From NCBI RefSeq assembly GCF_013167455.1, contig NZ_CP038328.1: a DNA stretch of 64,000 nt. The stretch is one strand, 5' to 3'. Shown piece after piece: positions 52,301 through 55,300 of this stretch. Positions within the stretch are counted from its first letter, which is position 1. Every line of letters begins with the position of its first letter. Made by a program: the position numbers. The DNA is from Escherichia coli O157:H7. GTDB taxonomy: Bacteria > Pseudomonadota > Gammaproteobacteria > Enterobacterales > Enterobacteriaceae.

Positions 52301-55300
52301 ATTGTACCGATGCGTAATGCTGGCGAGCTGACGCTGGTGAAAAGTTTTGACTGGTGATCCATCCCTTCACACAACCTGGCTCTTTCTTTTTTCAGATAAG
52401 ACTGCTGGGCGATCTGCCGACGCCAGGATATAACCATTAACAAGCGTCGGCAGATTGGTCATTTCTTATTTTTCGTACTGAGAACTGTCCATTTACTCCG
52501 GCTTTCCTGGTTAAGGCAATGGTTTCTAAGCGATACGCATTATTGCAATGGTGACAGAACATTGCGGTAACACGCTTTTACCGCTACCTTAACCACACTC
52601 CATCGGTCACCTGAGGCGGAGCTTCGCCCCTTTGAAATACCTTGCTTCTTTTCGTACAACCCTGAAAGCCTCGCGCTACATGTTCAGAGCATTGGCGTTA
52701 GTGCTCTGGCTGTTGATTGCTTTTTCATCCGTTTTTTACATCGTTAATGCGTTACATCAGCGAGAATCGGAAATTCGTCAGGAATTTAATCTGAGTTCCG
52801 ATCAGGCTCAGCGCTTTATTCAACGCACCTCTGATGTGATGAAAGAGCTGAAGTACATCGCCGAAAATCGCTTATCGGCAGAAAACGGTGTGCTTTCCCC
52901 GCGTGGACGAGAAACGCAGGCGGATGTGCCTGCGTTTGAACCGCTGTTTGCCGACTCCGATTGTTCAGCAATGAGTAACACCTGGCGAGGTTCTCTGGAG
53001 TCATTGGCGTGGTTTATGCGCTACTGGCGCGATAATTTTTCTGCGGCTTACGATCTCAACCGGGTATTTTTAATCGGCAGCGATAACCTCTGCATGGCCA
53101 ATTTCGGTCTGCGTGATATGCCAGTGGAACGCGATACCGCGTTGAAAGCTTTGCATGAACGCATCAATAAATATCGAAATGCACCACAAGATGATAGCGG
53201 CAGTAACCTCTACTGGATCAGCGAAGGTCCGCGCCCTGGCGTCGGGTATTTTTACGCGTTGACGCCAGTTTATCTGGCGAACCGGTTGCAGGCGCTTTTG
53301 GGTGTCGAGCAGACCATCCGGATGGAGAACTTTTTCTTACCGGGTACGTTGCCGATGGGGGTTACCATTCTTGATGAAAATGGTCATACCCTGATTTCGC
53401 TTACCGGGCCAGAAAGCAAAATTAAGGCCGATCCTCGCTGGATGCAGGAACGCTCCTGGTTTGGCTATACGGAAGGGTTCCGGGAGCTGGTGCTGAAGAA
53501 AAATCTGCCACCCTCATCGCTCAGCATCGTGTATTCGGTGCCGGTTGATAAGGTGCTGGAACGCATTCGCATGTTGATCCTTAACGCAATTTTGCTGAAT
53601 GTGCTTGCCGGAGCTGCATTGTTTACTCTCGCGCGGATGTACGAGCGACGTATTTTCATTCCGGCGGAAAGCGACGCCCTGCGACTGGAAGAACATGAGC
53701 AGTTCAATCGCAAGATTGTCGCCTCCGCGCCAGTGGGTATCTGCATTTTGCGTACCGCTGATGGCGTCAATATTTTAAGTAACGAACTGGCGCATACCTA
53801 TCTCAATATGCTTACGCATGAGGACCGCCAACGACTGACACAAATTATCTGTGGGCAGCAGGTCAATTTTGTTGATGTCCTGACCAGCAACAATACCAAT
53901 CTGCAAATCAGCTTCGTCCATTCGCGCTATCGTAATGAAAACGTGGCCATTTGTGTGCTGGTGGATGTTTCTTCGCGCGTGAAGATGGAAGAGTCGTTGC
54001 AGGAGATGGCACAAGCAGCGGAACAGGCGAGCCAGTCAAAATCGATGTTCCTTGCCACCGTCAGTCATGAGCTGCGAACGCCGCTGTATGGCATTATCGG
54101 TAACCTGGATCTGTTGCAAACCAAAGAGTTACCGAAAGGCGTCGATCGTCTGGTGACGGCAATGAACAACTCTTCCAGCCTGTTGTTGAAAATTATCAGC
54201 GATATTCTCGATTTCTCGAAGATTGAATCGGAACAGTTGATGATCGAACCGCGTGAGTTTTCACCGCGTGAAGTGATGAACCACATCACCGCCAACTATT
54301 TACCGCTGGTGGTACGCAAGCAGTTAGGCTTGTACTGCTTTATTGAACCGGATGTGCCAGTGGCCTTAAATGGCGACCCGATGCGTTTACAGCAGGTCAT
54401 CTCCAACCTGTTGAGTAACGCCATAAAATTCACCGATACCGGCTGTATAGTTTTGCATGTCCGCGCTGATGGCGATTATCTCTCTATCCGTGTTCGCGAT
54501 ACCGGCGTGGGGATTCCGGCGAAAGAAGTGGTGCGCTTGTTTGATCCCTTCTTCCAGGTCGGAACGGGCGTACAGCGAAACTTCCAGGGGACCGGTCTGG
54601 GTCTGGCGATTTGTGAAAAACTGATCAGCATGATGGACGGCGATATCTCGGTAGATTCAGAACCGGGAATGGGCAGCCAGTTTACCGTGCGTATTCCGTT
54701 GTACGGCGCTCAGTACCCGCAGAAAAAAGGCGTGGAAGGGTTGAGTGGTAAACGCTGCTGGCTGGCGGTCCGCAATGCGTCGCTCTGTCAGTTCCTGGAA
54801 ACCAGTTTGCAGCGCAGCGGCATCGTCGTAACAACATACGAAGGGCAGGAACCGACTCCCGAAGATGTGTTAATCACTGACGAGGTAGTGAGTAAAAAAT
54901 GGCAGGGCAGAGCGGTAGTGACCTTCTGTCGTCGACATATTGGTATTCCGCTGGAGAAAGCGCCAGGGGAGTGGGTACACAGTGTGGCTGCTCCGCATGA
55001 GCTACCGGCATTGTTGGCGCGTATTTATTTGATCGAGATGGAGAGCGACGATCCTGCTAACGCTCTGCCGTCGACGGACAAAGCGGTCAGCGATAATGAC
55101 GATATGATGATTCTGGTCGTGGATGATCATCCGATTAACCGGCGTTTGCTGGCAGATCAGTTGGGATCGTTGGGCTATCAATGTAAAACCGCGAATGATG
55201 GCGTCGATGCGCTTAATGTACTTAGCAAGAATCATATTGATATCGTGCTTAGCGACGTCAACATGCCAAATATGGATGGTTACCGCTTGACACAACGCAT

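Follow-up and report, generated by a model that had tools for sequence, protein, structure and literature searches.

The yfaP-rcsC junction in O157:H7

The window analyzed here is a 64-kb stretch of Escherichia coli O157:H7 DNA, and all coordinates refer to it. The yfaP gene (positions 51581 to 52357, plus strand) is an open reading frame (ORF) encoding a 258-residue DUF2135 protein; it closes the yfaA-T-S-Q-P cluster and ends with a TGA stop codon at 52355 to 52357. Its product shares 99.6% amino acid identity with K-12 YfaP, and the DNA on this side of the junction is 99.0% identical to K-12, with homology ending at 52358. The next gene, rcsC (52632 to 55481, plus strand), is an ORF for the 949-residue hybrid sensor kinase and uses the same TTG start codon as in K-12. 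RcsC is also 99.6% identical to its K-12 counterpart, and the rcsC-side DNA is 98% identical. Beyond it, on the minus strand, lie rcsB (55681 to 56331), which was located from the annotation of an identical genome and whose product has 100% amino acid identity to K-12 RcsB, and rcsD (56348 to 59020), an annotated 890-residue ORF. Altogether, K-12 YfaP, YfaQ, RcsC, and RcsB align with the window at 97.8 to 100% amino acid identity, in the order yfaQ, yfaP, and rcsC on the plus strand and rcsB on the minus strand.

The spacer between yfaP and rcsC is only 274 bp long (52358 to 52631) and stands in place of 7,490 bp in K-12. In MG1655, the order is rcsC (minus strand), then atoS, atoC, atoD, atoA, atoE, and atoB (plus strand), then yfaP (minus strand), and the 7,490 bp from the rcsC start to the yfaP stop hold atoSCDAEB. 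The flanking genes and their relative orientation are thus the same in the window as in the K-12 rcsC-atoSCDAEB-yfaP locus (b2218-b2225). However, where K-12 has six ato genes and a bidirectional terminator between atoB and yfaP, the window has a decayed atoS stub within its 274 bp. With yfaP and rcsC adjacent and co-directional, this is an ato-less junction, and with no intact atoSCDAEB between rcsC and yfaP the window does not contain a K-12-type functional ato locus. ato genes are also absent from the rest of the 64-kb window, in which tblastn searches with AtoS and AtoC found only paralogs, namely the kinase and receiver domains encoded within rcsC. The rcsC leader, or promoter-proximal, block (52556 to 52631, plus strand) was untouched by the ato indel: it is identical to K-12 at 76 of 76 positions and is conserved across the Enterobacteriaceae.

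An earlier sequence-only reading of this DNA had put the end of yfaP at 52357, the start of rcsC at 52632, and a spacer of about 270 bp at 52358 to 52631, coordinates that proved to be exact. It had also placed atoSCDAEB between rcsC and yfaP in K-12, a claim that would fall to a K-12 map with ato elsewhere or to ato genes close by; the MG1655 map has the operon between these two genes, and the window has no ato gene.

A decayed atoS relic in the spacer

Within the spacer, 197 bp (52359 to 52555, minus strand) have no match in K-12 at normal identity. Alignment identified it as a relic in which the 5' end of atoS and the atoS upstream region survive in decayed form. Homology to K-12 breaks at 52358 and at 52509/52556; identity to K-12 is 72.5% in the coding part of the relic, only about 55% in the former upstream region (from 52463 on), and 99 to 100% in the flanks on both sides. 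The coding relic retains a 31-codon ORF (52367 to 52462, minus strand; MTNLPTLVNGYILASADRPAVLSEKRKSQVV, followed by a stop codon) that matches AtoS residues 23 to 49, with 15 of the 27 residues identical (BLASTP, E = 4e-8). At the DNA level, positions 52383 to 52450 are 78% identical to the 5' end of K-12 atoS (E = 4e-9). The relic matches the atoS genes of 3,717 E. coli genomes at 78.3% (blastn), and those of Citrobacter and other Escherichia at 73 to 80%.

The stub is damaged in several ways. In both pairwise and multiple alignments, the site orthologous to the atoS start codon (52474 to 52476, minus strand) now reads ACG (CGT on the plus strand). Between this site and 52462, 52 bp are missing relative to K-12, corresponding to atoS codons ~2 to 22. 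Moreover, the alignment has 55 columns that never vary among 11 functional atoS genes of Escherichia, Citrobacter, and Raoultella, and the relic differs at 13 of them, the signature of lost constraint. In one spacer variant alone, that of strain WCHEC050613, PGAP calls a 41-residue "hypothetical protein" over the relic, which we regard as the AtoS stub.

Simpler accounts of the spacer were considered and rejected. It is not a clean end-to-end join of K-12 intergenic sequences, as K-12-like sequence is confined to the 76 bp nearest rcsC, the remainder being diverged atoS relic. A chance match to atoS is rejected by the DNA and protein E values given above and by the fact that the same segment matches atoS of many genera. 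Nor is the spacer a repeat or REP element, for it occurs once per genome. The sequence-only reading had looked to an alignment with K-12 to define the boundaries of the indel. Because the spacer holds an old decayed relic and is not a clean join, these boundaries can be defined only as homology breaks, at 52358/52359 on the yfaP side and at 52555/52556, where near-identity begins on the rcsC side.

Distribution of the junction in E. coli

Positions 40000 to 63999 of the window match many O157:H7 genomes at ~100% identity, among them Sakai, EC4115, TW14359, and 86-24, which agrees with the initial inference that the strain lies outside K-12. In the Sakai annotation, ECs_3107 (rcsC) adjoins ECs_3108 (yfaP) with nothing annotated between them; the annotation there is the same and the identity is ~100% over 24 kb, and the junction itself is no different from that of the window. 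The junction also extends beyond O157:H7. In B1 strains such as O104:H4 2011C-3493, the breakpoints are identical and the spacer is 98.8% identical to that of the window. The window strain also has a rare nonsense SNP in yfaS, unlike Sakai and the B1 comparison genomes.

Of 5,426 complete E. coli genomes, 1,539 match a 2,274-bp probe across the junction in one uninterrupted piece, and in the others the match is split; this contiguity rules out an assembly artefact as the source of the junction. The spacer itself was found at full length in 1,536 of the 5,426, with 391 at 99% identity or more (the O157:H7 type) and 1,150 at 95 to 99%. Three types were compared: O157:H7 spacers are 100% identical to the window, those of O104:H4 and other B1-type strains 98.8%, and those of the WCHEC050613 type 96.3%. 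K-12 atoDAEB was detected in 3,926 and atoSC in 3,931 of the same 5,426 genomes, always at 95% identity or more. Thus the ato-less junction accounts for ~28% and ato for ~72% of complete E. coli genomes, in keeping with the earlier suggestion that this is the junction of a strain-variable locus. None of 70 sampled ato-positive genomes was labeled O157:H7.

The two sets of counts do not add up exactly. atoSC or atoDAEB is missing from ~1,495 to 1,500 complete genomes, in comparison with 1,536 to 1,539 that have the junction. Junction and ato counts together come to at least 39 more than 5,426, so ato must lie elsewhere in some of the genomes that have the ato-less junction. Such an excess fits the published finding that the LAA pathogenicity island in LEE-negative STEC (E. 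coli that make Shiga toxin) carries atoSC-atoDAEB in its module I (PMC5539235, PMC10562709, PMC6174562), so that natively ato-less lineages can hold these genes at another site. In contrast, the window has nothing like an LAA-type ato copy, and O157:H7 is LEE-positive. In a survey of E. coli from meat plants, atoA prevalence was 98% in phylogroup A, 11% in B1, 100% in B2, 100% in C, 67% in D, and 0% in E (PMC9602453). The locus is therefore an already known, phylogroup-structured presence/absence polymorphism of ato, although our literature search found no direct, explicit statement that O157:H7 lacks it.

The locus in related species

For a wider comparison, we took the loci surrounding rcsC from 80 species, a set in which E. 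albertii, E. fergusonii, E. marmotae, and E. ruysiae do not appear by name. In most Enterobacteriaceae, gyrA directly adjoins rcsC. In ~18 Citrobacter species and one Raoultella, the order is gyrA, atoBEADCS, rcsC, and in Escherichia it is gyrA, yfaATSQP, rcsC, with ato, where present, between the last two. Two of the recovered Citrobacter loci have rcsC without neighboring ato genes. The synteny in ~18 Citrobacter species and one Raoultella indicates that the adjacency of rcsC and ato is old. The GC content of the K-12 ato genes, 0.48 to 0.54, is like that of the flanks. ato at this locus does not look like a genomic island or a mobile-element insertion, given its host-like GC content, the lack of annotated mobility genes, the atoS relic at the "empty" site, and the Citrobacter synteny.

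E. whittamii shares the scar of the window down to its breakpoints and internal deletion; the surrounding 20 kb are collinear with the window and 90% identical to it. Across the junction, the identity between the two is 83% for the relic, 92% for yfaP, and 88% for rcsC. Relative to functional atoS, the O157:H7 and E. whittamii relics have 55 shared derived changes, with 10 and 7 lineage-specific ones.

A different scar is found in Escherichia sp. MOD1-EC7003. There, as in the window, yfaP adjoins rcsC with ato remnants between them. However, its spacer is 755 bp and consists in part of ~300 bp of a K-12-like atoS 5' end (96.9% identical) joined to ~150 bp of the 3' end of atoB. The breakpoints thus differ from those of the window, and the deletion is independent and much younger. 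Sporadic partial ato deletions also occur in the single E. coli genomes NT1N28 and PCP06171. Loss of ato is therefore recurrent, and one could suppose a recent loss of a K-12-like operon, either in the O157:H7 lineage or in the ancestor of phylogroup E, especially as ato is of a core type where it is present in E. coli (97.9 to 100% identity). This history is extremely unlikely. The relic is only 73 to 78% identical to every E. coli atoS, and the same scar is found in B1 strains and in E. whittamii. Because all E. coli atoSC are at least 95% identical to K-12, no atoSC copy found can be the recent parent of such a relic. Indeed, because the relic lies 22 to 45% away from every atoS while the flanks beside it are 99 to 100% identical to K-12, a recent deletion of the modern E. 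coli allele cannot be its source.

The reverse order of events has somewhat more in its favor. An Escherichia ancestor could have lost ato, with the ato-positive lineages (the K-12 type and the type of Escherichia sp. E1V33) later regaining the operon, or atoSC, by recombination with divergent donors; the ato-less state would then be ancestral within E. coli. Across the genus, the functional atoSC alleles are indeed a deep mosaic. Fourfold sites of atoA and rcsC diverge by 0.32 and 0.38 between K-12 and E1V33, but those of atoC and atoS by 0.65 and 0.64, a depth matching that of Citrobacter. Similarly, the atoB 3' remnant of MOD1-EC7003 is 78% identical to K-12, yet its atoS 5' end is 97% identical, and the scar is common to more than one species. 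Nevertheless, we consider loss and regain improbable. The divergence of ato within E. coli tracks that of the core genome (ST131, for example, is 97.9% identical to K-12), ato is present in phylogroups A, B2, C, and most of D, and its GC content is host-like. Moreover, the Citrobacter loci examined lack yfaP, the left flank of ato in Escherichia, so that a donor from Citrobacter could not have supplied the operon by a simple double crossover.

A hairpin in the relic

Within the relic lies an inverted repeat of 12 bp without mismatches (52412 to 52455), with arms ATCTGCCGACGC (52412 to 52423) and GCGTCGGCAGAT (52444 to 52455), a 20-nt loop, and, 6 nt on, the T-rich run TTTCTTATTTTT. The predicted RNA fold has a free energy of -29.7 kcal/mol and a z score of -4.9, and none of 200 shuffled sequences folded as well. 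The arms are invariant in the three E. coli spacer types and have two mismatches in E. whittamii.

These features raise the question of whether the spacer has acquired a new function, either as a terminator, in which the hairpin and T tract would stop yfa-operon transcripts running toward rcsC, or as the source of a small RNA or peptide. A terminator would have an obvious place here, in that the deletion removed the canonical bidirectional terminator that follows yfaP in K-12 and left yfaP and rcsC in tandem; the strength of the fold, the T-rich run downstream, and the unchanged arms in E. coli point the same way. However, a terminator scan did not call a rho-independent terminator at 52412 to 52455, because the 20-nt loop exceeds the 3 to 8 nt of the pattern and the T run, which is interrupted, begins 6 nt past the stem instead of ~2 nt. 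In E. whittamii, the stem has two mismatches with no compensatory changes, and the T run is degraded there and in the WCHEC050613 type. A structured RNA or annotated gene in the spacer is likewise rejected: Rfam 15 covariance models gave no match with E up to 1 across 52200 to 52800, no sigma-70-like promoter match was found in the spacer, the Sakai genome has no annotation there, and the supplements of an intergenic screen for small genes in Sakai make no mention of rcsC, yfaP, ECs3107, or ECs3108. A new function of either sort therefore seems decidedly unlikely, and exaptation of the relic hairpin as a terminator is a low-probability idea. More likely, the inverted repeat is a by-product, perhaps of templated mutation.

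Origin and age of the ato-less allele

Taken together, these results indicate that the yfaP-rcsC junction of the window is very probably the scar that an old loss of the ato locus by deletion left behind. The order of events that we infer is as follows. In the ancestral state, atoSCDAEB would have lain beside rcsC and been transcribed divergently from it, as it is in K-12. A single deletion would then have removed everything from atoS codon ~50 to 57, through atoC, atoD, atoA, atoE, and atoB, to a point within ~25 bp of the yfaP stop, and with it the bidirectional terminator between atoB and yfaP. What remained would have been the atoS promoter region and ~50 codons, a stub free of constraint that could decay by loss of its ATG, by the 52-bp internal deletion, and by sequence divergence to the present 22 to 45%. 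The ato-less allele, common to phylogroups E (O157:H7) and B1 (e.g., O104:H4) and to E. whittamii, is probably much older than the divergence of the E. coli phylogroups. It would since have moved as a unit by homologous recombination through its conserved flanks, which would explain why these flanks are ordinary E. coli sequence up to sharp boundaries.

How old the deletion may be is harder to say, and any estimate of its age draws on fewer than 200 alignable relic sites. The changes are also unevenly spread. Identity is 50% and 67% in the arms of the inverted repeat, versus 79% in the remaining coding relic, and a single templated event could have made part of this clustered divergence. Functional Escherichia atoS alleles are themselves ~25% apart (K-12 versus E1V33), so that some of the distance of the relic may reflect a divergent parent allele. 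In addition, the O157:H7 and E. whittamii relics differ by 17%, versus 41% at rcsC fourfold sites (divergence of 0.41, in comparison with 0.038 between O157:H7 and K-12 and about 0.55 to Citrobacter), and the scar may therefore have crossed species after the split instead of descending strictly vertically. Given a short relic, changes clustered in the repeat arms, and mosaic functional atoS, we gave up dating the scar by a strict molecular clock.

Implications of the ato-less junction

The absence of ato between yfaP and rcsC in O157:H7 is ordinary and already known, and nothing in it should surprise a specialist. What is added here is the anatomy of the junction: an old deletion allele with a decayed atoS stub, an allele that also occurs in B1 strains and in E. 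whittamii and that differs from at least one ato deletion of separate origin in the genus. In practice, the junction can serve as a lineage marker that separates O157:H7 and most B1 strains from K-12, B2, and C strains.

In K-12, the ato genes provide AtoSC signaling and ato-dependent growth on acetoacetate, butyrate, and valerate. From gene content, O157:H7 is expected to have neither AtoSC signaling nor ato-dependent growth on these three substrates. This predicted loss is relevant to physiology in the gut niche and to the transfer of K-12 ato-based biosensors and pathways to other hosts.

A broader reading, which we hold tentatively and think rather less than an even bet, is that the ato-less scar and the ato-bearing allele form an ancient, pre-E. 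coli presence/absence polymorphism. The two alleles would have been kept, or exchanged, across Escherichia species, with E. coli E and B1 and E. whittamii on one side and E. coli A, B2, and C and Escherichia sp. E1V33 on the other. If so, the catabolism of acetoacetate and short-chain fatty acids and AtoSC signaling would have been selected for and against over the long term, depending on the niche, and the relic hairpin may even have been recruited to shield rcsC from read-through out of the yfa operon. On the old-deletion interpretation favored here, the locus illustrates, cleanly and on a small scale, a polymorphism in gene content that is long-lived and would be maintained by recombination through conserved flanks.

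The atoS relic and the rcsC leader

Within the atoS relic, the decayed atoS 5' end and upstream region left by an old ato deletion, lies a perfect 12-bp inverted repeat (arms at 52412-52423 and 52444-52455 of the window). Functional atoS is without this repeat, and the substitutions that separate the relic from atoS cluster in the two arms, where identity falls to 50% and 67%. This concentration suggests that the repeat arose in one templated (quasi-palindrome) mutation event rather than by gradual decay. A second inverted repeat, GCGGTAACACGCTTTTACCGC (52564-52584), is located in the rcsC leader, in a block that is identical to K-12 and largely conserved across Escherichia; it was flagged on the minus strand by a terminator scan.

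Internal stop codons in yfaS and yfaQ

At position 49330, codon 1307 of the alpha-2-macroglobulin-family gene yfaS, the window carries a T where nearly all other genomes have G, creating an in-frame TGA that truncates the gene. This T/G is the sole difference between the window and NZ_CP030767 over the 14.3 kb of the rcsC region L002 compared. A 61-bp sequence carrying the T variant has an exact match in only four complete genomes (ECP19-598, 17B6-2, G5295 and FRIK1989, all but one labeled O157:H7), so the variant marks a small sublineage. The nearby yfaQ (49927-51576) is split into two open reading frames by an internal stop at codon 265 (50719-50721), and the annotations of Sakai (ECs_3109) and 2017C-4109 list it as a pseudogene. 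In K-12, by contrast, yfaQ is intact; conversely, it is yfaS that is a pseudogene there.

The ato locus in other genomes

In the collection of 5,426 complete E. coli genomes, at least 39 to 44 combine an ato-less yfaP-rcsC junction with an ato operon elsewhere, the latter probably the module I copy of the LAA island of LEE-negative STEC. In O157:H7 strain AC-3 (NZ_CP169544.1), the 2,274-bp junction probe matches over its first 249 bases only. Because this match is annotated as yfaQ and adjoins apbE, it suggests a large deletion that took out yfaP and possibly also rcsC, rcsB, rcsD and ompC.

Beyond E. coli, Escherichia sp. MOD1-EC7003 (L003:9249-10000) has an ato deletion that is independent of, and younger than, that of the window. 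Its 755-bp spacer begins at the yfaP stop with a stretch that is 75-92% similar to the intergenic region of rcsB and rcsC, followed by about 150 bp of the atoB 3' end (78% identical to K-12 and up to 85% to a Citrobacter) and finally by about 300 bp of a K-12-like atoS 5' end (96.9%).

Where the operon is retained, as in Escherichia sp. E1V33, comparison with K-12 reveals a sharp mosaic. Divergence at fourfold sites is 0.64-0.65 for atoS and atoC, a depth seen between genera, whereas the neighboring atoA (0.32) and rcsC (0.38) show normal within-genus depth. This difference implies that the regulatory genes atoS and atoC underwent allelic replacement.
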